Below are positions 7,907 to 36,518 of a DNA stretch of 64,000 bases, one piece after another. The notes beneath the pieces were generated by a model. It was not told the DNA's origin and did no database searches. It saw only the letters and a program-made list of their open reading frames with translations. Each line of letters begins with the position of its first letter. Positions within the stretch are counted from its first letter, which is position 1. Source of the stretch: Candidatus Poribacteria bacterium (GTDB lineage Bacteria; Poribacteria; WGA-4E; WGA-3G); the NCBI GenBank assembly GCA_965197475.1, contig CBDANF010000003.1, forward strand, positions 3,744,001-3,808,000, written 5' to 3'. A program made the translations under genes and the position numbers.

Positions 7907-10876
7907 ATGAAAAAGAAGGATGCTGAGATGATTCAGCGTACATTAGACGGTGACCAATCGGCATTCACCGCTTTAGTAGAAAAATACCAAAAGGGTGTGC
8001 ACGCACTCGCATGGCAGAAAATTGGCGATTTCCATATTGCCCAGGAGATTACACAAGACGCTTTTCTCCGAGCATACCAGAAACTCGGGACATTGAAGAA
8101 CCATAACCTGTTTTCTGGATGGCTCTATGTTATTGCCACACGCTTGTGTTGTGAATGGCTCCGTAAGAAACGTCTACCCATGCAATCCTTAGAAACCGTT
8201 GATAACAATGAGGTGGACCAAGTGGCATATACACAATACATGGAAGAACAGCGAGAGGCAGATGCCGACGAAAATCGGCGTGAACTGGTTAGAGATTTGC
8301 TCAAAAAATTACCAGAGAGTGAACGCACAGTGATGACACTTCACTATCTTGGTGAAATGACGTGTGAATCGATTGGCGAATTCCTTGGTGTATCTTCAAA
8401 TACCATTAGGAGTCGTCTGAGTCGCGCACGTAATAGATTAAAGAAGGAGGAAAATATGATAAAAGAAAACCTTAGCAGTTTCCAACTCCCGACACAAATG
8501 ACAGAAAACATTATGAAGGAAATTTCACGATTTAATCCAGTAGCACCTTCAGGTAGTAAACCGTTGGTACCATTGGCTGTTTCTGCTGTCTCTGCTGTTT
8601 TTGTTTTATTACTGATGGGAATTGGGGCACAAAACCTATACCGCTTTCAGAAACCGTATAGCTTAAACGCACAATCAGAACCGATGATTGAAATATCAGA
8701 AGCACAACTTGTCATTGATTCTCCAGCAAGACCTGCTGTTAGAAATCATGTCGGACATTCGGATATAACAGGTAAGAGCAACGGTGAAGGTCAGAAACCC
8801 GATGATCCGCTATTCGCTGCAGCAAATGCAGATGGAACTGAAGTATCAAAGTCGAAATCACAGTGGGTACAAACAAAAGGACCAGAAGGCGGTGCAGTAT
8901 CCACCCTCTTCAAAACAACGCGTGGGAACATATACGCCGGTGCCGAGCACGGTCTCTACAGACTCACAGATGATGGACAGGCGTGGAAATTTATTAGCAA
9001 AATCAAGGGACCTTCACGCTCTACAAAAGCAACAAGAAGGATGTGGTGGCCCGTCGTAGAACGTCAGGATATTCTCTACCTTGCGACCAATAAAGAGATA
9101 TTAGCTTCTTCAGATAGAGGCGAAAATTGGGAAACACTCTGTAAGTGTCCAGAAGGTCAACTTGTCGGCATGGTGATAACTGATGGGAACCAAGGCTCGC
9201 GAAGCAACATAGTTGTTTATTTAGCTTATACTAACGGAATATATCGCACGGTTGATTTTGGTAAATCATGGATTCCGCTCTCAGGGAGGGTAACAGACAG
9301 GAAAATTCGCGCAATAGCTGCCATTGAAAATACTGTCTTTGCTGGTACCGATAAGGGGCTTTTTCGTTTCAATAATGAAATATGGGAACATTTACCCATC
9401 AGTCAAGAGGATAGATCTGGCAAAACAACTGATTCAATTTTTGCATTAACAACCTCAGACAATAGGTTATACGTCTCAGCAAAGAAGAAGAATGCAGCAA
9501 TAAATCGTAACCAGACACATCAACAAATTGAAATAAAGACATCATCAGGCGACCTTGATCGGATAGAAGTAACTGATAATACGGGCGATTCTCAACTACC
9601 TAATGATTTTGCTATTTATCGTTCAATTGACCTCGGCGAGTCGTGGGATTCTATTACTCCGAAATTAGATGGTGACTTGAAAAAAGATAGTTATACGGTT
9701 GATGTTCCATCTTTATTGACCAACAAGGATGGCATCATAAACCCATTACTATTAAATATAACAGAGATCACTGCATCCGGGAAAAAGGTAATAGTGATGA
9801 CGAGTAAAGCAGAATATTATTCAGGTGATGCAGGTGAAAATTGGACACGCATAGAACATCCTGACAATGTAGCGTATGCTTCAGATACAGCACTGTTGAA
9901 TGGGAACACTTTCTATAGAGGCGGAACACAAGGAATTCAGCGTTCTACTGATGCGGGCAAATCATGGCATCAATTTAATACCGGACTTGTGAATACAAAT
10001 GTCAAACATTTAAATGTTATAAACGGGGTACTCTTTGCTAACACAGAAACAGGGTTTGTCAATTCTACTGATAGAGGTGAATCGTGGACTCCAGTTCTCG
10101 GACATATAGGCCACCTCACACATATTGTAGAATTCGACGATGAACTCTATGTAAGAGCTTATGCAAAAGGAACATCCAGATACTTGCGATTATCTTCTGA
10201 AGACAATAGTCTCAAAAGTATATCTGAAATACCCAGTTTAAAATTTATGAAAGATAACAAGTCGATTGAAATTGTGATAGACGAAAATAGAATTCGCATG
10301 AAACCATCTCTCGGAAGTTTTGCTGTTACAGACACTGCTTACTACGTGAAATATAATGACAAACTTTTCAGATGGAGTATTGGCACTCTGAATTGGTACG
10401 ACATTGGAGTAACGGATATGGATAAATTTGCCGTTTCAGGTGAAACTGTTTACGTTGGTAAGCAGAATGGACATCTGCTGCAATCGTTTGATGAGGGAAA
10501 CACTTGGAACGATATGAGTACTGTCATTGCAAATTTACCGTTTACTGTTGAAAGTTTCAATACAATTACGTTTGCTGGTGAAACTGTCTATGTAGCAACC
10601 GACAAAGGTGTTATTCGTTCAAGTTATGGTACTGATTGGCACATTCTCACCGACGTAGAGGGAACACCTCTCGTCGTAGACAGGTTTGCAGTGGATGGTA
10701 CAACGGTATTCGGTCATGCTGGGCAAAAGGTGTATCAGGTTAAAGAAGATTCGGATACATGGGAGCAGATCAAGCGAGAAATCCCATATCCTGTTAACTG
10801 TTTTGATGTGGATGGGAATATGCTTTATGTTGGAACAAGCGGACGAGGTGTGCTCAGCTTCACGCTTGACGAGTAG
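7907..10876 (+). CDS. Membrane-anchored ECF sigma factor fused to BNR/Asp-box beta-propeller
   Basis: sigma2 (AQEITQDAFL..FSGWLY), sigma4 (LPESER..TIRSRLSRAR), TM LVPLAVSAVSAVFVLLLMGIGA, repeated S-x-D-x-G-x-x-W Asp boxes; GGAGG RBS. Confidence 0.92.
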   Translation: MKKKDAEMIQRTLDGDQSAFTALVEKYQKGVHALAWQKIGDFHIAQEITQDAFLRAYQKLGTLKNHNLFSGWLYVIATRLCCEWLRKKRLPMQSLETVDNNEVDQVAYTQYMEEQREADADENRRELVRDLLKKLPESERTVMTLHYLGEMTCESIGEFLGVSSNTIRSRLSRARNRLKKEENMIKENLSSFQLPTQMTENIMKEISRFNPVAPSGSKPLVPLAVSAVSAVFVLLLMGIGAQNLYRFQKPYSLNAQSEPMIEISEAQLVIDSPARPAVRNHVGHSDITGKSNGEGQKPDDPLFAAANADGTEVSKSKSQWVQTKGPEGGAVSTLFKTTRGNIYAGAEHGLYRLTDDGQAWKFISKIKGPSRSTKATRRMWWPVVERQDILYLATNKEILASSDRGENWETLCKCPEGQLVGMVITDGNQGSRSNIVVYLAYTNGIYRTVDFGKSWIPLSGRVTDRKIRAIAAIENTVFAGTDKGLFRFNNEIWEHLPISQEDRSGKTTDSIFALTTSDNRLYVSAKKKNAAINRNQTHQQIEIKTSSGDLDRIEVTDNTGDSQLPNDFAIYRSIDLGESWDSITPKLDGDLKKDSYTVDVPSLLTNKDGIINPLLLNITEITASGKKVIVMTSKAEYYSGDAGENWTRIEHPDNVAYASDTALLNGNTFYRGGTQGIQRSTDAGKSWHQFNTGLVNTNVKHLNVINGVLFANTETGFVNSTDRGESWTPVLGHIGHLTHIVEFDDELYVRAYAKGTSRYLRLSSEDNSLKSISEIPSLKFMKDNKSIEIVIDENRIRMKPSLGSFAVTDTAYYVKYNDKLFRWSIGTLNWYDIGVTDMDKFAVSGETVYVGKQNGHLLQSFDEGNTWNDMSTVIANLPFTVESFNTITFAGETVYVATDKGVIRSSYGTDWHILTDVEGTPLVVDRFAVDGTTVFGHAGQKVYQVKEDSDTWEQIKREIPYPVNCFDVDGNMLYVGTSGRGVLSFTLDE

Positions 10877-10910
10877 TTTTACCTAATCACCTAACCTTCT
10901 TTATTTGAAA

Positions 10911-13018: not shown

Positions 13019-15313
13019 ATGAAACATGATGATGCTGAGTTGATTGAACGCACACTTGAAGGTGATTCCCAAGCCTTTGCTGCACTTGTAGAAAAATACC
13101 AAGAGCAGATACACGCGCTGGCGTGGCAGAAAATTGGTGATTTTCACATCGCGCAAGAGATAACACAAGATGCCTTCATCACAGCGTATCAAAAACTTTC
13201 AACCCTCACACATCACAACCGCTTTGCGGGATGGCTATATGTCATTACCAGTAACAAGTGTAATATGTGGCACCGAAAGAAAAAACCGCAACTTCAATCT
13301 CTGGAGGAAACAGACCCTATGGAGTTAGAAGAGGTGTATTATTCAGATTATGTGTCTCGGCAACGTGAAGAAGCAGCGAATAAAAATCAGCGAGCGATTG
13401 TTCGGAAGTTGCTCAATAAACTCCGAGAAAGTGAACGGACAGTCGTAACGATGCATTACCTTGCAGGCTTAACATGTGAAGAGATTGGTAGGTTTTTGGG
13501 TGTGTCGCCGAACACGGTTAAAAGTCGGCTGCATCGCGCCCGAGAGAGGTTAAAGAAGGAGGAAGCAGTGATTCAAGAAAATCTTAGCAGTTTCCAACTG
13601 CCAGCACAAATGACAGAAAACATCATGAAGGAAATTTCACGTCTTAATCCAATAGCACCTTCAGGAAATAAACCTTTAGTACCGTTAGCAATATCCGCTG
13701 CATCAGCAATAATAGTTTTTTTGCTGATAGGCTTTGGGGCGCAAAATCTAATTCGGTTTCAAAAGCCTTATAGTATAAAGGCAACATCAAAACCAACGAT
13801 TGAAATCGTTGACACACAAATAGTCTTGGAATCCTCTGCCAAACCTTCAATAAACAATCAAGTTGGACGTTCGGATGTTCTCAGTAACAATGATGGAACG
13901 GGACAGGAACCGGATACATCACTATTTACTGGAGCACAGACGGATGATACTGAAAGAACTAATTTCAAAGGTAAATGGAAACAGACGAATGGACCTTACG
14001 GTGGCAAGATAACAACGCTTTATGAAACCACTAATGGCGTGCTCTTCGCGGGGACAGAGAACGCAGGTATTTTTCGCTCCACTGATAATGGAAACAACTG
14101 GACACCAGTTAATACTGGATTAAACAATGAAGGGCGATTTATGGATGTTACTGCATTCGCGGAAAAGGGGAATAAGATCTATGCAGGCAGGTGGGAGGCA
14201 TTATACGTTTCTACTGATATTGGCAACACCTGGCAACCTGTATCTGCTATCCAACGCCCTGGGGAAATCAGTGGTATTGTGATCCTTGATGACCATATCT
14301 ACGTTAGTACACATTTCAAAGGTGTTTGGCAGTCTAAAGATGGTAATTCATGGGCACAAATCAATGACGGACTTGGAACGACGACGTTTCATGGGATGCT
14401 CTTAGAGAATGACCTGCTAACAGTGATGGAGGTTTTTAGACTCTCAAGTCATGGGACAATGCTGGTTGCTACTACAAGAAAAGGACTCTTTCGTAGAACA
14501 GGGAATGAAGACTCGTGGACACTTACCAATCCAGTTGACGTTGAGCATTCAGATGGGGTTGAGTCGGAAAACAATTCGCAAGATAAACCAGGATTAAATT
14601 CTTCACCTAAGCAACATTCTTCATCTGATTTACATGTTGAGTCGTTCGCTTCAATGAAACATTTACTTTTTTTGAGTGGATATATGGGGAAAAAATCTGG
14701 GATCTTCCGGTCAAATGACGTAGGCGACTCATGGACGCTCATCACCCCAGAAAAAGTAAAAGAAGAAAGTGATGACGTTCAGACAATTGCCGTGCAAGGT
14801 GGGAGGCTATACGCTGGCACTTCTGACGGTTTGATCTATCTTTCGGAGGATATGGGTGATTCATGGATATCAATCAATGATGGGGTAATGCATGGTGATG
14901 TATTATCATTGTTACCAATCAATGATAATACTGTCTTCATAGGCACATCTAAAAATGGAGTCTTTCGCACAACAGACGCAGGGGATTCTTGGGTAGAATG
15001 TAACACTGGCATAATAAATACATCTGTCAGAAAATTAGAGGTCATTGGTGATAAACTATACACCGTTGTTGGTAGAAAAATTGTCTATTCTGCCGACGGT
15101 GGAGATACATGGTTGCCTATAAACGATCCTTCAAAGCAGAGCAAATGTGGTGTTCTAACCATTTGTGTATCAGATGGAGAGCTCTACATCGGTGCTTACT
15201 TTGGTGATGATAAATATATTCCATCTCATCTTGGTGGTGAGGGTGATAGTGTTTACAGGTTGAATAGAAAAAATAAAACTTTGGTTGAACTTTTCACAGA
15301 TATGGAATTGTAA
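13019..15313 (+). CDS. Membrane-anchored ECF sigma factor with BNR beta-propeller, probably frameshifted into 15316-15861
   Basis: Start ATG 13019 (GAGG RBS; aligns with paralogues); sigma2/sigma4, TM, many Asp boxes. Confidence 0.88.
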   Translation: MKHDDAELIERTLEGDSQAFAALVEKYQEQIHALAWQKIGDFHIAQEITQDAFITAYQKLSTLTHHNRFAGWLYVITSNKCNMWHRKKKPQLQSLEETDPMELEEVYYSDYVSRQREEAANKNQRAIVRKLLNKLRESERTVVTMHYLAGLTCEEIGRFLGVSPNTVKSRLHRARERLKKEEAVIQENLSSFQLPAQMTENIMKEISRLNPIAPSGNKPLVPLAISAASAIIVFLLIGFGAQNLIRFQKPYSIKATSKPTIEIVDTQIVLESSAKPSINNQVGRSDVLSNNDGTGQEPDTSLFTGAQTDDTERTNFKGKWKQTNGPYGGKITTLYETTNGVLFAGTENAGIFRSTDNGNNWTPVNTGLNNEGRFMDVTAFAEKGNKIYAGRWEALYVSTDIGNTWQPVSAIQRPGEISGIVILDDHIYVSTHFKGVWQSKDGNSWAQINDGLGTTTFHGMLLENDLLTVMEVFRLSSHGTMLVATTRKGLFRRTGNEDSWTLTNPVDVEHSDGVESENNSQDKPGLNSSPKQHSSSDLHVESFASMKHLLFLSGYMGKKSGIFRSNDVGDSWTLITPEKVKEESDDVQTIAVQGGRLYAGTSDGLIYLSEDMGDSWISINDGVMHGDVLSLLPINDNTVFIGTSKNGVFRTTDAGDSWVECNTGIINTSVRKLEVIGDKLYTVVGRKIVYSADGGDTWLPINDPSKQSKCGVLTICVSDGELYIGAYFGDDKYIPSHLGGEGDSVYRLNRKNKTLVELFTDMEL

Positions 15314-16247: not shown

Positions 16248-19223
16248 ATGACATACGATGATTCTGATCTGATTCAACAAACATTAGAAGGTGATCAGCA
16301 AGCGTTTGCTGCACTTGTGGAAAAATACCAAAAACAGATACACGCGTTGGCGTGGCAGAAAATTGGTGATTTCCACATTGCGCAAGAGATTACGCAGGAT
16401 GCGTTCTTTACAGCATTCCAAAAACTTTCGACGCTCACAGACCATAATCGTTTTGCGGGGTGGCTATACGTGATTGCAAACCGCAAATGTATTGCGTGGC
16501 ACAGAAAGAAATCACCACAACCACAATCGTTAGAAGCGACAGACACAGTTGAATTAGAGGAGGTGTACTATTCAGAATATATGACCCAACAACGCGAAGA
16601 AGCAGCAAATCAAAAAAGACGTGCAATAGTCCAGAAATTGCTAAGTAAGCTACAAGAAAGCGAGCGAACAGTAGTCAATCTGTATTACATCGCAGAGATG
16701 ACATGTGAAGACATCGGCAAGTTTTTGGGTGTATCTCCGAACACGGTTCGCAGTAGACTTCACCGTGCAAGGAATAAAATGAAAAAGGATGAAACAATGA
16801 TTAAAGAAAACCTTAGCAGTTTCCAACTGCCGACACAATTAACGGAAAATATTATGAAAGAGATTTCACGCCTCAATCCAATAGTACCTTCTGGAAGCAA
16901 ACCTCTGGTGCCGTTAGCCATATCTGCTGCCTCAGCCATTTTAGTTGTCCTATTGATGGGAATTGGTGCGCAACATCTATATCGTTTTCAGAAACCGTAT
17001 CGTTTTGATGCGCAATCAGAACCGACAATTGAAATAACAGAAACGCAACTTGTCATTGACACGCCAGCAAAACCTGCTGTTCGGACCGCAATTGGTCGTT
17101 CAAATGTTTCAGGTAAGAACAACGGTACGGGACAGAAATCAGATGCCTCTCTGTTCGCTGCAGCACAAGCTCAAGAGTCAGAGATTCTAAAGTCCAAACA
17201 GAAATGGATTCAGGCAAAGGGACTGGAAGGGGGTGCAGTCACTTATCTCTTTGCAACAACTCGCGGTGACATGTACGCAGGCACACTCAGTGGTCTCTAT
17301 AGGCTTACAGATGATGGAAGTGCGTGGAAACTCATCAACACCCGTAATATACTTTCACCCAGCGCAGAAATTGAGGGAGAGGGTTGGGGACAAATGGTAG
17401 AGAGTGGTGATACCCTCTACTTTGCCACGAAAACAGAAGTGTTAGCGTCTACAGATAGAGGTGAAAAATGGAGGACGCTCGGCAAGCATCCGGGAGGTGT
17501 GCCTATTGGCATGGTAATAACGGATCACACATTTTATCTCGGTCACCGTGAAGGGGTATTCCGTTCCAAGGATGGTGGCACATCATGGATGCCGTGGACA
17601 CATTTAATCAATGAGCAAACAGGCAACAAAATTCGCGCAATTGCCGCTATTAAAAGTACTCTCTTTGCAGGAACCGATAAAGGTCTTTATCGTCTCAATG
17701 ACGATATCTGGGAAAAAATATCCATCGGCCAGGGGAATGCACAGGAAAAAGAAATTGGCATTCATGATTTGGCAGTTGTAGGAAATCAACTCTTTGTTGT
17801 AGTCTTACCGATAAAACTAAGAGGGACCTATGCAGTTAAGTTGCCCTTAGGAGATAAAAAATCAGTTAGTAATTTCGGTTGGAAGCTTTATCATTCAATT
17901 GATAGCGGTGATTCATGGAATTTGATTGCACACAAAGACAAAATTATCAATATGAGAAAGTCTTATTTTCCATTACAAGTATTAGGACCCAGGATGCACC
18001 AATTTCCGTTTACAGGGATGGGACCCAACTTGAATGTAAAGATAGCCGCAGTAAAAGGTAGAATCGTAGTAATAGATAGCGATTACCAGTCCTACTCAAT
18101 TGATGGAGAAGGAAATTGGGTATTAGATGATACTTCAAATAACGGCAGTATACACAACATAACTCCAGTCCCTGTGATGTTAAACCCAAATACCATATAT
18201 ACTTCCAACGCATACGGCATTTATCGTAGTACGGATGGTGGCAAGTCATGGCAACAATTTAATTCAGGGTTAACAGGAACCTCCATCTTGACTTTAGTTG
18301 CTGTTAATGATGCCCTTTATGCGATTACACCTGAAGGACTTGTCACCTCAACTGATGGAGGTGAATTGTGGACAAATGTTTTCCTCGTAGGGGGAGATTT
18401 TACTATGAGTCTGAAGATTTTCCACGAGTCAGTCTATGTAAGAACTGATAGAATGTTAGCGCAAGCAAGTACCATTGTCAAAAATGTGCAAGTTCCCGAG
18501 ATGAAAATAGGGGATATGAAAATTAATCGTTTATCAACAAAAAACGGTAAGAAAACCTTCATTCGTGAAACCCCCACTTTTGAACAAAGTAACCTACCTG
18601 CTATTGGAACGGTACCCGGAAACTTTGCCGTTAGTGGTACAACCTATTATGCAGAATACACCAAAAAACTCTTCAGATGGAAACCTGGTGCTACTGAATG
18701 GTACGACACAGGATTAATAGATAAAGGTGAACCGCCTCCTTTTGACGAATTCGCTGACATCCTTGATTATACCGGTTTCAAACTTGCTGTTTCGGGTGAG
18801 ACGGTTTACGTCGGCAAAAGAGATGGACACCTCATGCAATCTTTTGATGAAGGAGATACTTGGAACGATGTCACAGCAAATTTACCACTTTCTGTTGACC
18901 ATTTTAACTCAATAGCCTTCGTGGGACAAACTATCTATGTGGCAACCGACAAAGGTGTCGTGTCGTCAAGAAACGGCACTGATTGGCATATTATAACTGA
19001 TGGAAAAGAAAAACACCTTGTCGTTGATAGATTTGCAGTAGATGGCACAACGGTATATGGTCAAGTTGGGCAAAAAGTATACCAATTAAAAAAGAATTCA
19101 GACGTATGGGAACAGATTACACCAGAAATTCCATACCCTGTTTCTTGTTTTGATGTTGATCGGAAGACACTCTATGTTGGAACGTTCGGTAGTGGTGTGC
19201 TTCGTTTCATGCTTGATGAATAA
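16248..19223 (+). CDS. Membrane-anchored ECF sigma factor fused to BNR/Asp-box beta-propeller
   Basis: Start ATG 16248 (GAGG RBS); close paralogue of 7907-10876 in sigma, linker, TM and terminal blades. Confidence 0.92.
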   Translation: MTYDDSDLIQQTLEGDQQAFAALVEKYQKQIHALAWQKIGDFHIAQEITQDAFFTAFQKLSTLTDHNRFAGWLYVIANRKCIAWHRKKSPQPQSLEATDTVELEEVYYSEYMTQQREEAANQKRRAIVQKLLSKLQESERTVVNLYYIAEMTCEDIGKFLGVSPNTVRSRLHRARNKMKKDETMIKENLSSFQLPTQLTENIMKEISRLNPIVPSGSKPLVPLAISAASAILVVLLMGIGAQHLYRFQKPYRFDAQSEPTIEITETQLVIDTPAKPAVRTAIGRSNVSGKNNGTGQKSDASLFAAAQAQESEILKSKQKWIQAKGLEGGAVTYLFATTRGDMYAGTLSGLYRLTDDGSAWKLINTRNILSPSAEIEGEGWGQMVESGDTLYFATKTEVLASTDRGEKWRTLGKHPGGVPIGMVITDHTFYLGHREGVFRSKDGGTSWMPWTHLINEQTGNKIRAIAAIKSTLFAGTDKGLYRLNDDIWEKISIGQGNAQEKEIGIHDLAVVGNQLFVVVLPIKLRGTYAVKLPLGDKKSVSNFGWKLYHSIDSGDSWNLIAHKDKIINMRKSYFPLQVLGPRMHQFPFTGMGPNLNVKIAAVKGRIVVIDSDYQSYSIDGEGNWVLDDTSNNGSIHNITPVPVMLNPNTIYTSNAYGIYRSTDGGKSWQQFNSGLTGTSILTLVAVNDALYAITPEGLVTSTDGGELWTNVFLVGGDFTMSLKIFHESVYVRTDRMLAQASTIVKNVQVPEMKIGDMKINRLSTKNGKKTFIRETPTFEQSNLPAIGTVPGNFAVSGTTYYAEYTKKLFRWKPGATEWYDTGLIDKGEPPPFDEFADILDYTGFKLAVSGETVYVGKRDGHLMQSFDEGDTWNDVTANLPLSVDHFNSIAFVGQTIYVATDKGVVSSRNGTDWHIITDGKEKHLVVDRFAVDGTTVYGQVGQKVYQLKKNSDVWEQITPEIPYPVSCFDVDRKTLYVGTFGSGVLRFMLDE

Positions 19224-22479: not shown

Positions 22480-22570
22480 TCATTATTCTTTTGACGTGTG
22501 GTGTTTGTAGTCGCGCAATTCACGTGCCTCTTATTTTCATTTTCAAACAATTTATTAAGGAGTATTTGAT

Positions 22571-24415
22571 ATGCTTACCAAAGATTTCGTGCAGAACTAT
22601 CCACAAGAAAACCGGCTCTTTTTACCGGAAAAGGCAATTGCTCGGTTCGCCAGAGGGAGTGTATCTGCGACGGCAATATCCCCAGATGGAAATCTTATTG
22701 CTGTGGCATCCCGCATTGGTGTGTGGCTCTACGAAGCGCATACCGAGGATTTTGTAAGGCTAATCGCAGTAGATGGCACAGGTCTCCTTTCAAGGGTCGC
22801 CTTTTCTCCAGATGGCACTCAGATCGCAACGGGGGATTGGGATGGTATTGCGACACTGTGGGATGTTGCTACCGGAACAGAACTTGTTTCCTTCACTAAT
22901 ACAGATTATGTGACTTCAGTCGCTTTTTCTCCGGATGGAAAGTTTTTGGCAACTGGCACTCGGAATGATAAAGCAACACTGTGGGATATTGATACCGGTG
23001 TGGCACGATGGACTATTTCCCACGAAGATTGTGTGACTTCAACTACATTTTCGCTGGATGGATTGCTTTTGGCAACCAGTAGTTGGGATAGCACGGCAAA
23101 TTTGTGGGATGTAGAAACGGGTGAAAATCGTCGGTGTTTCAGCCATCAGAAGAAGGAGGTAGATATTACATTTGACTCGGGGCATGATTTCACCGTTAAT
23201 GATGGTGGTATTAATTGCATTGCCTTTTCACCGAATGGTCAATTTTTCGCCACAGGCGATCGCATTGCAAGCGACAGAGATGGTTGCACGACACTGTGGG
23301 ATGTTTAGAGTGGCGAAGCAATATGGGATTTCACTCATGAAAAATCTGCTACATCCATTGTTTTCTCAATAGATAATAGGTATATGGCAACCCGTTTTTC
23401 GGGCGGAGAGACGGACGTGCGTTGTATTACTGATGGTACTTCGGCATCTCTTAATGAGGGAAAATGGCCAAAAAGTACAAGGAAACCGCCTCTAAATCAT
23501 CCACGGGATTTATACGGTTGGCTCGTAAGTTTTTCGCCGGATGGGAAACACTTGATTAGTATGGCAGAATGTTCTGCAATCAAGGTGTGGGATGTCATAT
23601 CTGGAAAAAACATCAAGACAATTGATCGGGATATGGGACAAGCGGAATCTTTAACGTTTTCTGCCGAAGGCAACTATATTGGATTAAGCCGTTTCGTCGA
23701 GGATACAGCCACGTTATGGGTAGATGAGGAACAGATGGCAGTGTTCTCTATCAAAGATATTACGGCTGCTGCTATCTCTTTAGATAGCAAACTTGTGGCA
23801 ATTGGCGGTTTTGATGGAATGATCAACCTCTGGAGCGTAGAGACACAAGCACAGTTACAGACATTTTTTGGGCATACAGGATTAATTAAGACCCTTGCTT
23901 TCTCGCCTGATTGCACACGGTTAGTGAGTGGGGGTGGGCACAAAATGGAAATACAGGAAAAAGATGGAGCTGAATATATATTCATGAGTGGAGATAGCCC
24001 TATGGACCAAACCGCCAAAGTCTGGGATATTGAAACAGGAATGGAGATTGCCATTCTTCAACATCCCACCGTAGTTGGGGTGGTTGTCTTCTCACCTGAT
24101 AGCACACGCCTTGCCACAGCCTCTGGAAAAAAAGTTTATCTATGGGATACAAGGACGTGGCAAGAAAATGTTGCATTTGAAACAGGATCGGTTGAGTCAT
24201 TTGCATTTTCACCGAATGGCACTTTCCTTGCCGTTGGAGGTACAGGTCGGAACCCGAAAATTCAGATATGGAATGTAGAGACGGCAGAACTCGTTGTAGA
24301 ATTTTCTGGACATAAGAGTGATGTGGAATCTGTTGCGTTTTCTCCCGATGGCACGCTACTCGCAAGTGGAGGCTTTGACGGTGTTATCTATTTATGGGAT
24401 ATGATACCAAATTAA
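22571..24415 (+). pseudogene. WD40-repeat protein interrupted by an in-frame TAG at 23306-23308
   Basis: WDV*SGEAIWDFTHEKSATSIVFS continues in frame into 23384-24415; paralogue of 25117-26652. Confidence 0.85.
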
Positions 24416-24494
24416 CTTGATCCCACTCGGTAGGTGCCGTTTCTAACCGCACCCATAGGCGTCAATTTAGTGGTTTTTCAAATATGAGAATGCT

Positions 24495-24697: not shown

Positions 24698-24760
24698 TAT
24701 AGGACAGTCTCAATAGTCAGGCCTATTGAGAAGTGTTCATAAACGGACAGACATTTTCTT

Positions 24761-25021
24761 CTGATATTTCTCATAATTATTCCGAACCTAATAACCACCA
24801 CCCTAAAGCACGTGGACAGACATAAAAATGCGTATTCGTCATGATGATTTTGCCTGTTTTTTTCGTAGGTAAACCCATTTAATTGACAATTTCACTCTGT
24901 TTTGTGTTGAAAATAAAGTGATTTTCTCGGACAATAGGTGCATATCAATTAGCATTTTCATTATCTCATATTGAGAAAGCGTTGATAGATATTGACTTCT
25001 GAGCGTTTTGAGAAATATCAG
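24761..25021. mobile_element. 261-bp MITE derived from the IS at 21126-22479
   Basis: Perfect 13-bp TIR ctgatatttctca/tgagaaatatcag, flanking CTT on both sides, subterminal similarity to both IS ends. Confidence 0.8.
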
Positions 25022-25116
25022 CTTAGTTATTGTTCTTTTGACGTGTGCTGTTTGTAGTCGCGCAATTCACGTGCCTCTTATTTTTATTTTCAAATTGTTT
25101 TTACGGAGTGTTTAAT

Positions 25117-26652
25117 ATGCAAACCAAAGATTTCGTGCAGAACTATCCACAAGAAAACAGGCTCTTTTTACCTGAAAAGGCAATTGCTCGGTTCGGCAGG
25201 GGAGGTATATCTGATACTGCCATTTCTCCAGATAGGAATCTTATTGCTGTGGCATCCCGTATCGGTGTATGGCTCTACGAAGCGCACACTGAGGATTTTG
25301 TAAGATTATTCGCTGTAGAAGGCACGGGACTTCTCTCTGCTGTTACTTTTTCTCCAGACAGTACCCGAATCGCAACGGGAAATTGGGATGGTATTGCGAC
25401 ACTGTGGGACGTTGCTACCGGAACAGAGATCGTTGCCTTCAAGAATACAGATTATGTGAGTTCAGTTGCCTTTTCGCCCGATGGCACGCTTTTGGCAGCT
25501 GGCACTCGGAATGGTAATGCGACACTGTGGGATATTGATACTGGTGAAGCGCGTTGGACTATCCCTCACAACGATTCTGTGTCTTCAGTTGATTTTTCTC
25601 AGGATGGGTTGCTTTTGGCTACCCGTTTTTCGGAGGGTGAAACCGATGTGCGTTGTGTTGCTGATGGCACTTCGGCATATCTTCAAGACGGAAGATGGAC
25701 AGATAGAAAAATAAAGGATCTCTCTCTCACGCATCCACGCAGTTGGTACAGTTGGCTTGTCAGTTTTTCGCCTGATGGAAGACACGTAGTTGGTATGTCA
25801 GAACTTTCTGCTATCAAGGTATGGGATATCGTATCTGGAAAAGACATCAAGACAATTGATCGAGAGGTGGGACAAGCGAAATCACTAACGTTTTCAGCCG
25901 AAGGAAACTATATTGGATTAAGCCGTTCAGAAAATGCAGCTATTCTATTGATAGATGAAGAACAGAAAGCTGCATTTGATCATCAGACAGAAGTTCTGTC
26001 TGCCGCAGTTTCTCCAAGTGCTATGCTTGCAGCTACGGGCGGTATAGATAGAGAGGTCAAACTCTGGAATATCGCGACACAAGAACATTTACGGACGTTT
26101 TCTGGTCATATAGGGGCAGTGTATGTTGTCACATTCTCACCTGATGATACACTTCTGGTAAGTGGGGGAGGACGCAATTTTGAAATACAGGAAGAAGATG
26201 GATTCCTTTATTTCATTTCTCCTGAGGGGAGTCCTATTGACCAGACTGCAAAGGTCTGGGAGGTTGGCACAGGGAAAGAGATTGCTACCCTCGAACATCC
26301 TTCTTTGGTCAGAGAAGTTACCTTTTCACCTGATAGCACCTATCTTGCCACAACCTCTGAAAACAAGGTTTATCTATGGGATACAAAGACGGGGCAGAAA
26401 AATGTGACACTTGAAACAGTCAGGGTTGAGTCATTTGTATTTTCTCCGAACAGTTCTCTTCTCGTTGTTGGCGGTAGAGGAAAAAATGCGAATATTCAAA
26501 TCTGGGATGTGGAAACAGCACAGCTCGTTGTAGAATTTTCTGGTCATAAAAGTGATGTAGAATCTGTTACTTTTTCGCCAGATGGGACGCTTTTGGCAAG
26601 TGGAGGCTATGACGGTGTCATCTATTTATGGGATATGAAACCGTATCAGTAA
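25117..26652 (+). CDS. WD40-repeat protein
   Basis: GGAG RBS then ATG 25117 (aligns with 22571); LPEKAIARFGRG N-cap; many FSPDG..LA..G..D..LWD repeats. Confidence 0.9.
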   Translation: MQTKDFVQNYPQENRLFLPEKAIARFGRGGISDTAISPDRNLIAVASRIGVWLYEAHTEDFVRLFAVEGTGLLSAVTFSPDSTRIATGNWDGIATLWDVATGTEIVAFKNTDYVSSVAFSPDGTLLAAGTRNGNATLWDIDTGEARWTIPHNDSVSSVDFSQDGLLLATRFSEGETDVRCVADGTSAYLQDGRWTDRKIKDLSLTHPRSWYSWLVSFSPDGRHVVGMSELSAIKVWDIVSGKDIKTIDREVGQAKSLTFSAEGNYIGLSRSENAAILLIDEEQKAAFDHQTEVLSAAVSPSAMLAATGGIDREVKLWNIATQEHLRTFSGHIGAVYVVTFSPDDTLLVSGGGRNFEIQEEDGFLYFISPEGSPIDQTAKVWEVGTGKEIATLEHPSLVREVTFSPDSTYLATTSENKVYLWDTKTGQKNVTLETVRVESFVFSPNSSLLVVGGRGKNANIQIWDVETAQLVVEFSGHKSDVESVTFSPDGTLLASGGYDGVIYLWDMKPYQ

Positions 26653-26670
26653 AACGCAAGGAGATATTTT

Positions 26671-28761
26671 ATGGAAAACAAAAAGTCAGTAGTTCCCGTT
26701 CCAGTAGGGAACTACGGAGATGACGTAACTACATGGGCACTCCCCGAAGGTGCAGTTGCTCGATTAGGGCGCGGCTGGGTGCCTGATATTGCGTTTTCCT
26801 CAGATGAACGTTATCTTGCTGTCGGAACTTGGGTAGGACTATGGTTGTATGACTTGGAAATGCTATCTCCTGTCGCATTATGGGAAACGAAACGGGGTAT
26901 GGTTGGATGTGTTACCTTTTCACCTAACGGAAAATGGATTGCTGTCAGCAATTCAGATCGAATTTTAAAAGTATTGGATATCCGGAATAGTGCATGCTTA
27001 ACACAAGTAGAGTCGGATGATTATATTACAGGACTAACTTTTTCACCTGATAGTCAATATCTTGCAGCTGCCTATGCAAGTTCTCATACCGTTGAAATCT
27101 GGCATGCAAAAACTGGCGAACTGTTTGCTAAATTCACTGCAAACGTTAAGAAAGCTCGTTTTACCCGTCCTATCTGTTTTTCACCTGATACGCAACTGAT
27201 AGCATCTACGTGCATCATTGACACGGATCACAATGCAGATGCAATAGTAGTCTGGGATATGGAAAGTGGTCAACAAATTGCATCTCTCATTGCACACACC
27301 AAAGAGATAACTAAGATCTGCTTTTCACCGTGTGGACAGTTTCTCGCCTCTGGCGGTGAAGATGGCGCAGTGTACGTCTGGAATGTTAACACTTGGCAAC
27401 AGGTGCAGGCATACACAGATTTTGGTGACGTATATCGCATCATTCCTTCCTATTCACCGGAGGGAATCCTCCGTGCTGCGATTATGGCTTATGAGGATAC
27501 CGCTCCTTCCACTATCTCTGTTTGTAACTTGGAAAGCGGAGAACAACTTTATACTGATCAAATATTAGGAAATACCGAAGACTATTCCTATTTCAATCAT
27601 TGGGGTAAAACCATAGTCTTTTCGAACGGTTCGCAGCTTGCTTATGAATGCAGACACGATTTCATCAACGTGTGGACACTTGCTAACTCTAACACGCGCC
27701 AGCTTACCCATTCGCCTATCTCTTATCCTACATCGGTAGTGTTTTCGGATGATGGAAACACCTTAGCCGCTGAACATTATCACGAGGGTGTAGTGTTATG
27801 GGATGTTGCAAGCAGGCGTTCACGTCCTGCAGTTAAAGTGGAATCTGCTGAGAAAAATCAGTTTGTATATAAATCTGAGAGCGAAAAACTCCATGTCGCT
27901 AGCATCAAAGATGACACTGTTACACTTTGGGAGGCTGATCGCGATAGAACTCCGCTTATTGAAGGAACAGGACGCAAATATTGGAGTGCATTTCCTGCAT
28001 TATCACCAACAGGAACACTTTTCGCTTATGCTGACGCAGATGGCAACCTAAAAGTGTGGGATGTGCAAAGTGGGGAGAAACTTCATGAATTAACACATCC
28101 GCTTTATCAAGACGATGAAGATGATGAAGATGATGAAGATAACGAAGATAAAATTAGTGAGTTAGCGTTCAGTCCCGATGGAAGTCTTCTCACAAGTGAG
28201 TCGCGTTTCACACCTATTCGGCTGTGGGATATGGAACATGGTGAAGAAATAATCGCATTTCCGGGTGATAGCCTTGGAGGAATCATAGGATTTTCTCCCT
28301 GTGGCAAGTATCTCGCTTGTCTTGGAGAATATGTCCAATTGTGGGACATCACCCATGGCGAAATGTTCATAACGTCTATAACACAAGATCAGGTGACAGA
28401 CGAGTTCGCGTTTTCGCCGTGTGGGCGGTACTTGGCTGCAGGTATGAACGAAATTATGCTGTGGGACATCACGCGCTGTGAACTCCACATGCATCTCTCG
28501 CTGCCAAAGGAATGTCAGAAAATGTTTCCATTAGCATTTTCGCAGTGTGGGGACTATTTTGCCGCAGGCGCATGGTGGCAACCCGGTATGGAGAAGATGC
28601 CGATCTGTTTGTGGGAAGTAGAAACGGGTAAACATCTTGTCACCTTTTGGGGACATGGCACAGACATGCAGGCACTGGCATTTTCACCTGATAATAAACT
28701 CTTAGCGAGTGCAAGTTATGATGGCTCCATACTCCTATGGGATTTGATGCCTTATCTGTAA
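26671..28761 (+). CDS. WD40-repeat protein
   Basis: LPEGAVARLGRG N-cap, WD40 repeats (FSPCG variants), acidic DDE tract. Confidence 0.9.
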   Translation: MENKKSVVPVPVGNYGDDVTTWALPEGAVARLGRGWVPDIAFSSDERYLAVGTWVGLWLYDLEMLSPVALWETKRGMVGCVTFSPNGKWIAVSNSDRILKVLDIRNSACLTQVESDDYITGLTFSPDSQYLAAAYASSHTVEIWHAKTGELFAKFTANVKKARFTRPICFSPDTQLIASTCIIDTDHNADAIVVWDMESGQQIASLIAHTKEITKICFSPCGQFLASGGEDGAVYVWNVNTWQQVQAYTDFGDVYRIIPSYSPEGILRAAIMAYEDTAPSTISVCNLESGEQLYTDQILGNTEDYSYFNHWGKTIVFSNGSQLAYECRHDFINVWTLANSNTRQLTHSPISYPTSVVFSDDGNTLAAEHYHEGVVLWDVASRRSRPAVKVESAEKNQFVYKSESEKLHVASIKDDTVTLWEADRDRTPLIEGTGRKYWSAFPALSPTGTLFAYADADGNLKVWDVQSGEKLHELTHPLYQDDEDDEDDEDNEDKISELAFSPDGSLLTSESRFTPIRLWDMEHGEEIIAFPGDSLGGIIGFSPCGKYLACLGEYVQLWDITHGEMFITSITQDQVTDEFAFSPCGRYLAAGMNEIMLWDITRCELHMHLSLPKECQKMFPLAFSQCGDYFAAGAWWQPGMEKMPICLWEVETGKHLVTFWGHGTDMQALAFSPDNKLLASASYDGSILLWDLMPYL

Positions 28762-28822
28762 CGTGCTTCACATTGTCTTTGTTTCTAAATATCTACTGAG
28801 AATAACACTAAGGAATTTAGTC

Positions 28823-31026: not shown

Positions 31027-33759
31027 ATGGAAAGAGACGATGTTGAACTGATTCAAAGTATATTATCAGGTGACCAAGCTGCTTTCAGTATTTTGGTAAA
31101 AAATACCAAAAAAGTGTTCACGCGCTTGCATGGCGGAAAATTGGCGATTTCCATATCGCTGAAGAAATTACACAAGACACCTTCCTCCATGTGTACAAGA
31201 AACTGACCACACTGAAGAACCCAAAGCAGTTTGCGGGATGGTTGTATGTAATCGCTGATCGACGTTGCATCGCGTGGCTACGAAAGAAGAAACTGGATAT
31301 GCAATTGATGGAAGCCATCAGTGAAGAAACATTGGAGAAGACTGCTTATGCCAGTTATGTAACAAAACAGCGTGAAAAAGCAGCAGTTGAACATCAACGT
31401 AAAATTGTTCAAAGACTTCTGGAAAAACTACCGGAGAGCGAACGTACGGTGATGGTCCTCCACTATCTCGGAGAAATGACCTGCAAGGAGATAAGCAAGT
31501 TTTTAGGTGTGTCCCCGAACACGGTTAAAAGCCGACTTCAACGTGCTCGCAAACGATTAAGAAATGAAGAATCTATAATTCGAGAAACCCTTGGCGGGAT
31601 CCGACTCCCTGCCAACCTAACTGAGAACATCAGGCAGCAGATTGACAAAGTGAAACAGATGTCCCCATCGGGAGCGAAACCGTTTTCACCTCTTGCAGCT
31701 TTAGGCATATCTGCTATTTTGGTAATTTTGCTAATGGGAGCGAGCAATCAAATCATCACTAATTTTCAGCAACCGTATAGTGTTGACGCAGAATCAGAAA
31801 CTACAATTGAAATTGTTGACGCGCCTCTTGTTCTTGATATACAATCAAAACCCGATTTACAAAATCGGGTTGGGCGTGATGCTATTGTTGATAAAAACAG
31901 CGACAAAGGTCTAACAAAAGGAACAAAAAAAGTGGAAAATAACTTGGCACAAGATCCTATGCAATGGCACTTACCTGAAGATGCTAAAGCCCGTTTCGGT
32001 AAAGGAAGGATAAATGAAATACAGTATTCTCCCGATGGAAAGTTTCTTGCTGTTGCAAGTGGAATTGGTATTTGGCTTTATGATGTAACAGTATATCAAG
32101 AAGCTAGTCTTCTCACTGGACATAAGGGAACAGTTGACTGCCTTGCATTTAGTCCGGATGGACGCATCCTCGCGAGTGGAAGTAGCGACTACGGCACCAT
32201 CATCCTGTTGGATAGAAATACGGGGACGCAAAAAACGCTTACCGGACATACATATTTGATCTCAAACGTGGCATTCAGTCCAGATGGAAAAACACTCGCA
32301 AGTGATAGTCGGGACGGCACTATCTGTTTATGGGACACAATCACTGGAGAACAGATGTATACACTCACGAAAGATTCTGAACGCCTAACTATGTTATCAT
32401 TCACGCCAGATGGACAGACAATTGTGGGTGTAAGTTGGGACGACAAAATCAGTCTGTGGAATTCAATCACGGGTAAACACAAGAAGACCTTTGCTTTGCA
32501 TCCCGATTGTTCTGTTACGGGCGCGGCGTTTAATCCGGATGTGAAAACAGTCGCGATTGGCAGTGACAATGGCACAATCTACCTCCACGACTTGGATACA
32601 GGCAAACTCAAGATGACACTCACCGAACATAAGGAACGTATTGACAACTTAGCGTTTAGTCCTGATGGAAATACACTCGCTACTGCGTCATTCAGAGATG
32701 AAACTATCCGTCTATGGGATGCCAACACAGGCAAACACAGACTAACACTCACTGGACCACAGGCGCAATATGCACACACCCGGTATGTTCGAGGCTTCGT
32801 GTTTAACCCTGATGGAAAAACCCTTGCAAGTGGAAGTGGTGATGGCACTATCCGTTTTTGGGATACCCGCACTGGTGCCGAAAAACACAGATTCACTGGA
32901 CATTCAGAATCTGCCTTGAGTGTTGCGTTCAACAAGGATGGCAACATCATTGCAAGTGGGTCTACCGATGATCTTGTTCGCTTGTGGAATGCGGGACACA
33001 GGACAACACATCAAAACGATCAATCGGTCTAAGGATATCACTCACTGGACACGCAGCATGCTGTTCAGTCCAGATGGAAAAATTCTTGTTTGCGGAACTG
33101 ACGAAGGTATAGGTATATGGAATTTACACACAGGTGAAAACAAGAATAAATTCTATGTGGATAGTCCCTGTACCCCCGCACTTAGTCCCGATGGGAATAC
33201 ATTTGCAAGTGGGGTTGACGAGAAAACTATATCCTTATGGGATGTACACACAGGCAAACACAAGAAAACTCTTACCGGAGATTTAGATCAGATGAGTTGC
33301 TTAGTATTCAGCCTGGATGGTAGAATTCTTGCGGGTGGGAGTTTGGACGGCACCATCCGCCTTTGGGATATTGACACTGGCAAAAACAAGACACTTAGAG
33401 GACATGTAGATTGGGTGAATGCTTTAACGTTCACCCCAGACGGAAAAACCCTTGCGAGTGGGAGTGACGACACTACCATCCGCTTTTGGGATGTTGACAC
33501 AGGCAAGAACAAGATGATGCTCAGAGGATCGGATTGGCATCACAGTTATGCGTTAGCTTTTAGTCCAGATGGAAAAACCCTTGTGAGTGGAGATAGAAGT
33601 AAGAACATCTGTCTCTTTGATGCACACACCGGTGAGCAGAAGAATACACTTACAGGTCATACTGATCAGGTCAGCAGTCTCGCGTTCAGTCCTGATGGCA
33701 ACATCCTCGTTAGCAGTAGTCATGATGGCTCTGTGCTTCTCTGGGAAATAGATCCCTAA
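31027..33759 (+). pseudogene. Membrane-anchored ECF sigma factor fused to WD40 propellers, with two frameshifts
   Basis: ATG 31027 (AGGAG RBS) MERDDVELIQSILSGDQAAFSILV; 1 nt missing at the A-run 31098-31103; extra G near 32993-32995 (WNA/DTGQHIKT); ORF-track pieces 31191-33032 and 32920-33759. Confidence 0.85.
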
Positions 33760-34808: not shown

Positions 34809-34883
34809 TCTCAAATCGTTTTTTTTAAACCTTTTGCCCAAAAACCTTCCCTCTATATATTAAAACCTAATTGGGATTTTTTT

Positions 34884-36518
34884 ATGTACAATGATTTAGA
34901 ATTCATTGAAAGTCTAAAAGATGAAGAACTTATACGATTAGTACAAAACCTTAATGAAGCAGCTTTTTCTGAACTTATGTCTCGGTATACGCCACGAATC
35001 TGGCATGTGATAATAGCTAACTCGCGCCAAATTCAGGATGCTGAAGAAATACTCACAGATATATGGGTAGCAATATGGGATAACATCGGCAGGCTTAAGA
35101 AAGTAGATAGTTTTGGACCATGGCTGCAGAAAATTGCTTATACCGCTTGTAACAGGTACTACGCTTCTGCTAATCGCTCAAGAGATGAAATCCCGCACAC
35201 CGATGCAGAGTTAGTTGAGCAGATTGACCGAGAGGCAGCACCACGCTTCCGGGAAAATGAGCTTCGTACTGAGGTAAGAGAAGCAGTCCGGCATCTTCCT
35301 CAGCGGGTGCGTTCCGTTGCAGTATTGTACTATTTAGAATCATGGCGTATGAAAGAGATTGCCGAAGAGCTTGACCTGCTGATCGGCACCGTCAAGACGA
35401 AACTCAGAGAAATACGATCACTCCTGCGAAAGGAGTTTGATGTGGAACCAAACAAAGGAGAAATTATGTCGTCAGAATTTGTTCAAACGCAAAATCAAAA
35501 CGATATGGAGACATACGAAAAACTAATTACCGCAGCAACAAAAGGTGATTGTGAAGCAACAGAATTGCTAAAAGACCGATTAAAACCCTTGATCCGAAAT
35601 GTTCTTGAGAGTTTCTTTAGGAGTTATGATGATGAGATAAAAACACTTGAGTCCCGTACGTTGGGTAAGGTAATCAATTCGTTAGATTCTTTTCTATTAA
35701 TAAGATCATTCGAAACATGGGTACGGAACGTAGCTAGGCATACCGCTATACAGCATAATAACCAATATTTCTTTAACACTGTAAACCCTAATTCCAAAAG
35801 GATGAATTCAAAGAAGGTAGAACAAAAAGAGTCTTCAGGTTGCGGTTGTGGACCGCCACGCGAACTCGTTGAAGCATTTGAAAAAGCGACAATAATTCCA
35901 AAAGAACTCCTTGCAGTAAAGGTAGAATTACCGCCAACTATTGATGGGAATTTGGATGATCCTTGTTGGCAAATTGCACCCAAGGCAGTTGATTTTACCG
36001 ACAGAAATACCGGTGGTGAACTTGCCAAAAACCAAACTGAAGTCAGAATGGTCTATACCGATAAAGCGATTTATACGGGATGGTATCTTTACGATGACAA
36101 GCCTGAGGAAATCGTTGCACATCAGACAGAACATCAAGTCAGACCAAAACGCGAGGATTGGGTTTTGTTTACAATTGATCCGTTTCATACGCATCAATTT
36201 AGGGATCGGACATTTTTTATGGCAAATCCTCTTGGCAGTAAATATGTCAGTCGTCCTCCAAAAGATGTCCAAAAGAGCGATGCGCCGAACTTATGGAAGG
36301 TTGCAGCGAATATAGTGGATGACGGTTGGGTTGTTGAGATGGAGATACCATGGGAAATGTTGGATTATCCACAGACTACAACCCCTATTCAGATAGGAAT
36401 TAATTTTGACCGGTGGCACCCGAGAAATCGAGAAAATTCATGGTGGTCAAAAGCAGGTCTTCGGGAAAATGGCAGACCGGATGGACATTGGCAAGATGTG
36501 TTGCCACCACAAAAATAA
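34884..36518 (+). CDS. ECF sigma factor fused to a second sigma2-like domain and a CBM9/DOMON-like sugar-binding domain
   Basis: DAEEILTDIWV..SFGPWLQKIA; GTVKTKL; second GD.EA..L..R...SFETWVRNVARH; PTIDGNLDDPCW, WVVEMEIPW; no TM seen. Confidence 0.85.
   Translation: MYNDLEFIESLKDEELIRLVQNLNEAAFSELMSRYTPRIWHVIIANSRQIQDAEEILTDIWVAIWDNIGRLKKVDSFGPWLQKIAYTACNRYYASANRSRDEIPHTDAELVEQIDREAAPRFRENELRTEVREAVRHLPQRVRSVAVLYYLESWRMKEIAEELDLLIGTVKTKLREIRSLLRKEFDVEPNKGEIMSSEFVQTQNQNDMETYEKLITAATKGDCEATELLKDRLKPLIRNVLESFFRSYDDEIKTLESRTLGKVINSLDSFLLIRSFETWVRNVARHTAIQHNNQYFFNTVNPNSKRMNSKKVEQKESSGCGCGPPRELVEAFEKATIIPKELLAVKVELPPTIDGNLDDPCWQIAPKAVDFTDRNTGGELAKNQTEVRMVYTDKAIYTGWYLYDDKPEEIVAHQTEHQVRPKREDWVLFTIDPFHTHQFRDRTFFMANPLGSKYVSRPPKDVQKSDAPNLWKVAANIVDDGWVVEMEIPWEMLDYPQTTTPIQIGINFDRWHPRNRENSWWSKAGLRENGRPDGHWQDVLPPQK

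Follow-up and report, generated by a model that had tools for sequence, protein, structure and literature searches.

Can a gene that arose by fusion keep, inside its own coding sequence, the translation start of the partner that it absorbed? This question is raised by a 64,000-nucleotide stretch of the genome of a Candidatus Poribacteria bacterium, an uncultured sponge symbiont (contig CBDANF010000003.1, positions 3,744,001 to 3,808,000; the whole stretch is hereafter called the window), which carries four paralogous genes, A to D, each encoding an extracytoplasmic function (ECF) sigma factor and a transmembrane sensor in a single polypeptide, and a fifth gene, E, in which another ECF sigma factor is fused to cytoplasmic modules. 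The initial annotation had drawn attention to a Shine-Dalgarno (SD)-like sequence and an in-frame start codon directly behind the sigma domain, and had proposed that each gene makes a full-length protein and a sigma-less product or, alternatively, that the motif is the scar of a gene fusion. The origin of the site as a fusion joint is well supported by our sequence comparisons. The same comparisons make it about an even call that the site is still selected as initiation-competent in most lineages of the A family (A, B and C included) and probably in the E family, having been abandoned elsewhere, for example in D. That ribosomes start at codon 184 and that the short product matters is what we infer from this pattern.

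All four motifs reported earlier, those of genes A, B, C and E, were found in place and in frame, each with an SD-like sequence 5 nt before an in-frame ATG or GTG (Table 1). The start codon had been described as exactly codon 184. This is so for A, whereas for B and C it is correct only if translation begins at ATG 13019 and ATG 16248 and not at TTG 13001 and TTG 16230, the starts in the list of open reading frames (ORFs). These ATG starts are supported by 120 homologues that align from that Met and by SD-like sequences (GAGGT/GGAGG) 5–7 nt upstream. The loss of the site in the WD40 fusion, gene D, was likewise confirmed, with ATA at the aligned codon and no SD sequence before it.

Taking the predicted pairing energy with a generic anti-SD sequence as the measure of SD strength, the internal sites of A, B and E equal the true starts of the A family (mean −8.4 kcal/mol, n = 120), and that of C is weak. 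Over 127 copies of the junction the mean energy is −8.05 kcal/mol, against −4.64 kcal/mol expected when codons are resampled at fixed amino acids, and the 45-nt mRNA window at codon 184 ranks fifth least structured of 261. A single site of this kind is not unusual: among the 12,457 in-frame start codons that lie inside 486 Poribacteria ORFs, 4.1% have energies of −8 kcal/mol or lower and 1.8% of −10 kcal/mol or lower (counts that contain the family's own junctions), and one such site is roughly expected per gene of this size. In addition, the sites of A, B and C have to be taken as one event, because these genes are paralogues. What goes beyond chance is the location of the site, which in each of two unrelated sigma families coincides with the end of region 4, together with the comparative pattern described below. 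No internal promoter was matched on the plus strand upstream of the site in A, where match counts were at the level of shuffled sequence.

Codon 184 lies where free ECF sigma factors end. Residues 8–183 of SigW (187 residues) align with residues 8–181 of A, four residues short of the SigW end; the alignment of AlgU reaches residue 187 of A, and positions 4–183 of the 187 in the SigW family model are matched at A residues 4–181. Downstream of codon 184, A encodes 36 residues, a transmembrane (TM) helix, which starts ~32 codons after the site, and the ectodomain. An AlphaFold2 model of A residues 1–272 places one continuous helix (residues 164–191) across the junction at a predicted local distance difference test score (pLDDT) of ~70; its overall pLDDT of 60.8 and predicted template modelling score of 0.33 make the packing of the linker on the sigma domain unreadable. 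An unfused arrangement was also seen in the same phylum, at stand-alone ECF sigma genes of another group (locus L042, 1139–1900, and locus L050, 551–1260). The last codons of such a sigma gene (...N-G-E-I-Q-stop) hold GGAGAG, the ATG of the next gene follows 8 nt past the stop, and that gene encodes a membrane protein of 815–836 residues; we presume this to be the pre-fusion state. The end of the sigma gene and the start of the next gene would thus once have lain at an SD sequence and start codon, and the site would be the old translation-initiation region of the downstream gene, now read through as K-K-E-E-x-M in the A family and K/R-G-G/E-x-M in the E family. The scar proposal therefore stands as an account of origin, given the coincidence of the junction with the C-terminus of free sigma factors and an FtsZ-like N-terminus in the E family, although no extant split class was found.

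The E family extends this observation to an unrelated sigma factor. Its sigma domain is fused to three kinds of module, namely a ~110-residue extension (proteins of 305–316 residues), WD40 propellers (~830–900 residues, no TM helix) and the N-terminal GTPase half of FtsZ (~400 residues). Met occupies the junction column in 99 of 120 E-family proteins, and Asn in 19 more, of which both examples inspected have a Met two residues on. In the FtsZ type, the junction Met stands 13–14 residues before IKVIGVGG, and the match to the FtsZ model begins at model position 9 and residue 198, three residues past the Met, so that the junction Met appears to be placed at the expected beginning of an FtsZ protein. 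Across the family, the junction Met is preceded by K/R, G, G/E/D and any residue. The three E-type copies read AGG AGG GGA, AAA GGA GAA and AGA GGA GGC before the junction, all with GGAG 5–7 nt before ATG; they encode the peptides RRGT, KGEI and RGGV and have pairing energies of −12.7, −8.7 and −12.0 kcal/mol, respectively. In these sequences, the nucleotides look better kept than the amino acids.

The sigma–FtsZ fusions are in frame and occur in many clusters from many assemblies (for example, minus strand of locus L003, 20789 down to ~20010; proteins P0472–P0510). They match TIGR00065 at positions 9–200 of 353 with 232 bits, below the cut-off of 295. We met no description of such a fusion, and no literature search was aimed at it. 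Gene E itself, with 544 residues, is longer than its closest orthologues (305–316 residues) by a CBM9-like domain (residues 353–508, a weak Pfam match), which suggests a second in-frame fusion with the next gene, although neither a TM helix nor an export signal is present.

For the A family, the DNA sample consisted of the window and 62 loci, 61 of which come from Poribacteria metagenome-assembled genomes (MAGs) or single-cell genomes. The junction is spanned by 128 distinct copies, and 126 were analysed after removal of one stand-alone sigma gene of another group and one copy with an in-frame stop. At the protein level, more than 6,700 of 8,000 scored candidates matched the first 260 residues of A; the linker–TM module is narrow, with 281 clusters at 50% identity in a profile search. 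Codon 184 is ATG in 71 copies, GTG in 32, TTG in 2, ATA in 10, GTA in 3, and GTC, CTT, CTG and ATC in 2 each, that is, start-capable in 105 of 126.

The strongest indication of selection is the coupling of the start codon to the SD core. We divided the copies by the codon of Lys180, because the AAGGA core requires AAG at this position (residue 181 always begins with GA), and counted codon changes by parsimony on a FastTree DNA tree built without codons 176–188. Where K180 is AAG (85 copies), codon 184 is ATG in 57, GTG in 25, TTG in 1 and ATA in 2, and only 1 of its 10 changes breaks start capacity; where K180 is not AAG (41 copies), codon 184 is mixed and 9 of 13 changes do so (Fisher p = 0.0097). 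The start-preserving changes in the AAG group also depart from the neutral expectation of 0.4 (binomial p = 0.0017), and on a protein tree the breaking changes number 1 of 10 versus 7 of 13. This difference is not due to time, because the AAG group has twice the synonymous tree length of the other (20.7 versus 10.5 changes per fourfold column). Twelve control columns from the same 85 copies, variable and rich in start-capable codons, lose or gain start capacity in 36–76% of changes (pooled, 159 of 288, or 55%), and the true start column has three changes, all within start codons. Furthermore, all 25 copies of the AAG group with Val184 encode it as GTG and have undergone no synonymous change there; the mean over 40 fourfold columns is 4.68 changes, and 4 of these columns likewise lack any. 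Of the copies in which residue 180 differs but its codon still ends in G (CAG, GAG or AGG), 4 of 5 have the start codon; where the new codon ends in another base, the start is usually gone. The proposed limitation of codon 184 to ATG, GTG and TTG thus holds where the SD core is kept (83 of 85 copies start-capable) and breaks down where the core is degraded. In a separate observation, GTG copies have a stronger mean SD (−10.4 kcal/mol) than ATG copies (−7.7 kcal/mol), which would match expectation if a weaker start codon were compensated; this comparison is confounded by descent, as most GTG copies belong to one or two clades.

Synonymous codon use gives a more divided answer. The KKEE residues are conserved as amino acids (K180 in 119, E181 in 114 and E182 in 119 of 120 close homologues), with AAG for K180 in 85 of 113 copies (75%; background 34%) and GAG for E181 in 78 of 111 (70%; background 32%). 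K180 has retained AAG, which is not the preferred codon, and its 4 changes over 113 copies are the third lowest number among 63 twofold columns. Nine-codon windows centred on codons 183–195 show a modest dip to 0.74–0.80 of the expected synonymous change, and the true 5′ end shows 0.65–0.73. Context-dependent codon use was considered as a cause of AAG GAG and rejected, the corresponding frequencies being 36% for K before E and 43% for E after K (junctions included). The synonymous bias that had been suggested as a test for KKEE is seen, but it does not decide the matter: K180 changes slowly, E181 changes at an ordinary rate, and other columns are equally skewed.

On these grounds, the mRNA would most likely yield two proteins, the full-length sigma-sensor and a sigma-less linker, TM helix and propeller beginning at codon 184. 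The short product may act as a decoy, a partner or a stoichiometric excess of the sensor. Some lineages, D among them, would have abandoned the site, with drift of both its SD core and its start codon.

The initial annotation had also suggested a search for split homologues, but no class of separate sigma and anti-sigma homologues emerged on either the sigma side or the sensor side. Among sigma-only proteins of 100–321 residues (746 with E ≤ 0.001, of which the best 120 were examined), the ends are spread over 149–319, many with frameshift-like tails, and show no peak at 183. On the sensor side (linker–TM profile, best 150 of 281 clusters), the predicted start is Met184 in 8 clusters, Met203 in 7 and a position near residue 186 in 2. 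These sensor-only forms look like truncated gene calls; one short form falls into the same 90% cluster as a 1070-residue fused member, and an 889-residue sigma-less form exists as two sequence variants, each on two contigs. At the DNA level, locus L061 (8144–10657) carries a sigma-less copy in which ~200 nt of unrelated sequence replace the sigma-coding part. Homology to full-length orthologues begins ~23 nt before the codon-184 GTG, two in-frame stops lie just upstream, and from the GTG an ORF of 764 codons is intact (8363–10657). Its ratio of nonsynonymous to synonymous divergence (dN/dS), 0.34–0.40 against three full-length orthologues, equals that among those orthologues, which fits either continued use or a recent deletion. 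No promoter was matched on the plus strand upstream of this copy, with counts at the shuffle level. Many other copies of the family look broken, such as one with an in-frame TAA near codon 136 (locus L041, 10001–10789) and dozens of short sigma-only proteins with frameshift-like tails (P0271–P0390); these could be pseudogenes of a fast-turnover family or homopolymer errors in long-read MAGs.

Several points weigh against continued selection. The site is missing in 21 of 126 copies and in most copies of 8 of 30 clusters separated by synonymous divergence (dS) above 1, D among them, and is therefore dispensable. Residue 184 has undergone at least 22 changes on the tree, against 3 for Met1 and 4 for Met203, and its variability exceeds that of 52 of the 66 hydrophobic columns. 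Ile184 is ATA in 10 of 12 copies and Val184 is GTG in 32 of 37 (backgrounds 22% and 27%, respectively); because both codons are one transition from ATG, a recent origin alone could explain the codon choice. The third base of E181 flips between GAG and GAA 15 times in 112 copies, above the median of the 63 twofold columns, and each flip shifts the pairing energy between −11.7 and about −5.7 kcal/mol. Moreover, per-column codon use is very uneven (K87 is 91% AAG and V106 is 91% GTG), so that a G-rich codon pair is not rare in this family. Predicted proteins that start at codon 184 are no evidence of use, because those at Met203 match them in number. The coupling analysis has its own weaknesses: the partition by K180 was picked after seeing the data, the counts are parsimony counts on FastTree trees, the SD-less lineages form few clades and hence few independent events, and gene conversion among tandem paralogues could yield ATG/GTG toggles. 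Neither SD strength nor K180 = AAG covaried with start capacity in a test of phylogenetically independent pairs, which, with 5 supported pairs, was too small to reach significance. For the E family, the DNA evidence comes from three copies only. Finally, a second SD-like site occupies codons 102–106, in the linker between sigma regions 2 and 4 (GAG GAG GTG in most copies, GAGGTGG in A). Over 126 copies its conservation (weighted energy −9.1 kcal/mol) exceeds that of every other SD-like site of the gene, the junction included, and these codons have the lowest synonymous rate (0.62–0.70 of expected), yet no start codon stands at a usable spacing.

The rival explanation that survives best is that of an eroding relic, in which the ribosome-binding site and start codon of the downstream gene became fossils after an old in-frame fusion, are now functionless and slowly decay, and only the full-length protein matters. 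It would account for the boundary at the natural end of free sigma factors and the natural start of FtsZ-like modules, for the GGAGAG in the last codons of the unfused Poribacteria sigma gene, and for the losses, the changes at residue 184, the ATA and GTG codon choice there and the drifting third base of E181 just described. Two features do not fit. Paralogue dS is saturated (1.5 to >2.6), yet most copies still spell K180 as AAG in 18 of the 24 clusters that have Lys there. A neutral site should by now have acquired Ile and Leu codons, as columns 143 and 237 have done; in AAG-majority lineages only one of ten changes at codon 184 leaves the start set, versus 55% in the pooled control columns. 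We therefore regard the relic as a possibility that is rather unlikely in itself.

A coincidence at the protein level is a weaker candidate. KKEE may simply be a charged segment closing the last sigma-4 helix and residue 184 a hydrophobic position within a helix where Met is frequent, with the nucleotide motif a by-product of the two. The amino acid conservation of K180, E181 and E182 and the modelled helix across the junction are in line with this, and KKEE has an SD-like energy of −4.6 kcal/mol under any codon choice, against a gene-wide mean of −2.2 kcal/mol. From the two SD-like sites and the seven columns with a start-codon majority among 253 positions, the chance of one such coincidence is estimated at ~15%. 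Left unexplained, however, are the tolerance of Met and Val with near exclusion of Ile and Leu, found only with K180 = AAG, the invariable GTG for Val in the AAG group, the retained non-preferred codon of K180, and the same layout at the junction of an unrelated sigma family with varying peptides; we consider this explanation improbable. Least credible of all is a programmed pause, by which ribosomes would slow down between completion of the sigma domain and emergence of the TM helix, to the benefit of folding or membrane targeting, with the start codon irrelevant: SD-like sequences may cause ribosome pauses (a disputed matter in the literature), they are conserved here at codons 102–106 and 179–182 with a start codon at one alone, and the distance to the TM helix would suit, but neither the restriction of codon 184 to start codons nor the same motif in E-family proteins without a TM helix would be explained.

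If the site is still selected for initiation, as we favour for most A-family lineages, a broader design can be imagined for Poribacteria, in which in-frame sigma fusions keep the ribosome-binding site of the partner and one ORF gives a tethered sigma factor and a free partner. We put this forward tentatively, as a doubtful generalization. SD strength and start-codon choice would set the ratio of the two products; the threshold of signalling in the membrane family would be set by the free sigma-less sensor, acting as a decoy or in mixed oligomers, and in the cytoplasmic family free WD40 or FtsZ-like modules would be supplied. Should a sigma-less sensor indeed be made, the cell would regain, from one gene, an adjustable surplus of the part that senses or inhibits. 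ECF signalling would thereby acquire a new level of control, in a family that counts thousands of copies in sponge symbionts. The locus also provides a testable case of a putative domain-boundary internal start that is datable to a gene fusion. In addition, a peptide at a fusion joint, KKEE or RGG for instance, can be a ribosome-binding site that is translated, a point to consider when fused genes in metagenomes are annotated.

The positions of the genes and sites are listed in Table 1. The sigma domains of the window are of the ECF type (group 4 of the sigma-70 family), consisting of regions 2 and 4 only in ~180–200 residues. Pfam Sigma70_r2 and Sigma70_r4_2 are matched in A, B, C and E, and Sigma70_r4_2 in D; A additionally matches Sortilin-Vps10 and BNR. 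TIGR02937 scores 92, 99 and 89 bits (92 in A) against a cut-off of 42.9. SigW, AlgU and RpoE were matched by Foldseek, using the modelled N-terminal part of A, and by phmmer. The ectodomain is BNR/Sortilin-Vps10-like in A, B and C and a WD40 propeller in D. Cys81 and Cys153 are invariant in A to D; Cys81 is at least 90% conserved (37 copies), and position 153 is Cys in 85 family copies. A has a single TM-like segment between the cytosolic sigma factor and the outer domain, and none was seen in E or its relatives. Neither FecR nor any other anti-sigma family was matched in A to E (Pfam), and a Pfam search at E ≤ 1 of A residues 184–331 and the matching part of D found no anti-sigma domain after codon 184.

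Table 1. Positions of the fusion genes, their junction sites and neighbouring features in the window
Feature	Position	Strand	Description
Gene A	7907..10876	+	989 residues; ECF sigma (regions 2 and 4, residues ~1–183), 36-residue linker, one TM helix, BNR/Sortilin-Vps10-like beta-propeller ectodomain
Second SD-like site of A	8210..8224		Codons 102–106
Internal site of A	8445..8458	+	AGGAGG-aaaat-ATG; SD 8445–8450, 5-nt spacer, ATG 8456–8458 = codon 184; −11.7 kcal/mol
Predicted TM helix of A	8552..8641	+	Residues 216–245 by hydropathy scan; AlphaFold2 helix 223–247, low confidence
Gene B	13019..15313	+	Paralogue of A; 764 residues from ATG 13019
Internal site of B	13557..13570	+	AGGAGG-aagca-GTG; 5-nt spacer, codon 184; −11.7 kcal/mol
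Gene C	16248..19223	+	Paralogue of A; 991 residues from ATG 16248
Internal site of C	16785..16799	+	AAGGATG-aaaca-ATG; weak SD with core AAGGA, 5-nt spacer, codon 184; −5.4 kcal/mol for this peptide class
Transposase ORF	21525..22442		DDE transposase
WD40 ORF	22571..23308		
WD40 ORF	23384..24415		
WD40 ORF	25045..26652		
WD40 ORF	26671..28761		
WD40 ORF	28763..30934		
Gene D	31027..33032	+	Sigma-TM-WD40 fusion, same sigma family as A–C; start ATG 31027
A-run in D	31098..31103		GTA AAA AAT; frame broken by one base
ATA in D	31575..31577	+	Ile, aligned with codon 184; upstream AGA AAT GAA GAA TCT, without SD-like motif
Gene E	34884..36518	+	544 residues; unrelated ECF sigma, ~110-residue extension, CBM9-like domain, no TM helix
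Internal site of E	35454..35468	+	AAAGGAG-aaatt-ATG; 5-nt spacer, codon 195; −8.7 kcal/mol

Two further observations concern gene D and its surroundings. The reading frame of D is broken by one base near the 5′ end, in an A-run where the paralogues read V-E-K-Y-Q-K, and the remainder is read from the −1 frame. In the zero frame this position forms an A_AAA_AAT heptamer of the slippery type X_XXY_YYZ; D could thus be a pseudogene, contain a homopolymer sequencing error or use a −1 frameshift site. Upstream of D, within 21525–30934, the transposase ORF is followed by five back-to-back WD40 ORFs, in none of which Pfam found a sigma domain; they may be fragments of larger WD40 genes or an array of sensor-only paralogues.

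In canonical ECF operons such as sigW–rsiW, algU–mucA and rpoE–rseA, the sigma gene is followed by the gene of a membrane anti-sigma factor. The fusions described here resemble these operons in that the sigma part ends within a few residues of codon 184 and is followed by a membrane protein with a short cytoplasmic N-terminus. They differ in that the operons have two genes with a stop between them, whereas A to D have no stop and their ~36-residue cytoplasmic piece matches no anti-sigma domain. Proteins that fuse a sigma factor to a sensor are seen as the sigma/anti-sigma pair reduced to one component, and to our knowledge the way in which their activity is restrained is largely unclear outside IutY of Pseudomonas putida. 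IutY (ECF243), as described in the parts of the reports available to us, is a sigma/anti-sigma hybrid with an N-terminal cytosolic ECF sigma factor, a single TM segment and an extracytoplasmic sensing domain, from which the sigma factor is released through regulated proteolysis by Prc and RseP (PMC5411451, PMC8999054). A to D share the arrangement of cytosolic sigma factor, single TM segment and outer domain in one polypeptide, and by analogy the full-length proteins most likely work like IutY. However, the outer part of IutY is a FecR-type anti-sigma domain that acts with a TonB-dependent receptor, and that of A to D is a BNR/Sortilin or WD40 propeller; lacking a FecR domain, A to D fall outside the IutY family. 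The portions of the IutY paper that we consulted do not mention an internal start (PMC5411451).

ECF57-type proteins of Planctomycetes combine an ECF sigma factor with WD40-like repeats in many copies per genome, and two conserved cysteines have been proposed to connect their sigma-2 domain with sigma-4, according to the sections consulted (PMC8999054, PMC7826278). The WD40 extension of D and the Cys81/Cys153 pair of A to D recall this group. In contrast, the propellers of A, B and C are of the BNR/Sortilin type and not WD40, and the same sections describe no internal start for ECF57. Our literature searches found no description of these Poribacteria fusions or of an internal start in a fused ECF sigma factor; Kamke 2014, as far as its text was available, mentions abundant WD40 domains and not sigma fusions (PMC3909097).

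Functional in-frame initiation inside a gene is known from cases such as arcB, infB and clpB. The nearest precedent for the site itself is ArcB of Escherichia coli. According to the part of the report seen, its gene has a GUG with an SD-like sequence precisely at the border of a domain, which gives a second, N-terminally truncated product (ArcB-C) shown by ribosome profiling and western blotting, and other species have conserved the site (bioRxiv 10.1101/520783). Like A, B and C, ArcB is a membrane-anchored signalling protein. Its short form ArcB-C is the soluble phosphotransfer domain of the C-terminus, whereas the putative short product of A, B and C would be devoid of the sigma factor but retain the TM helix and the sensor. 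What is new here is the combination of two known kinds, a fused sigma/sensor protein and an internal initiation site.

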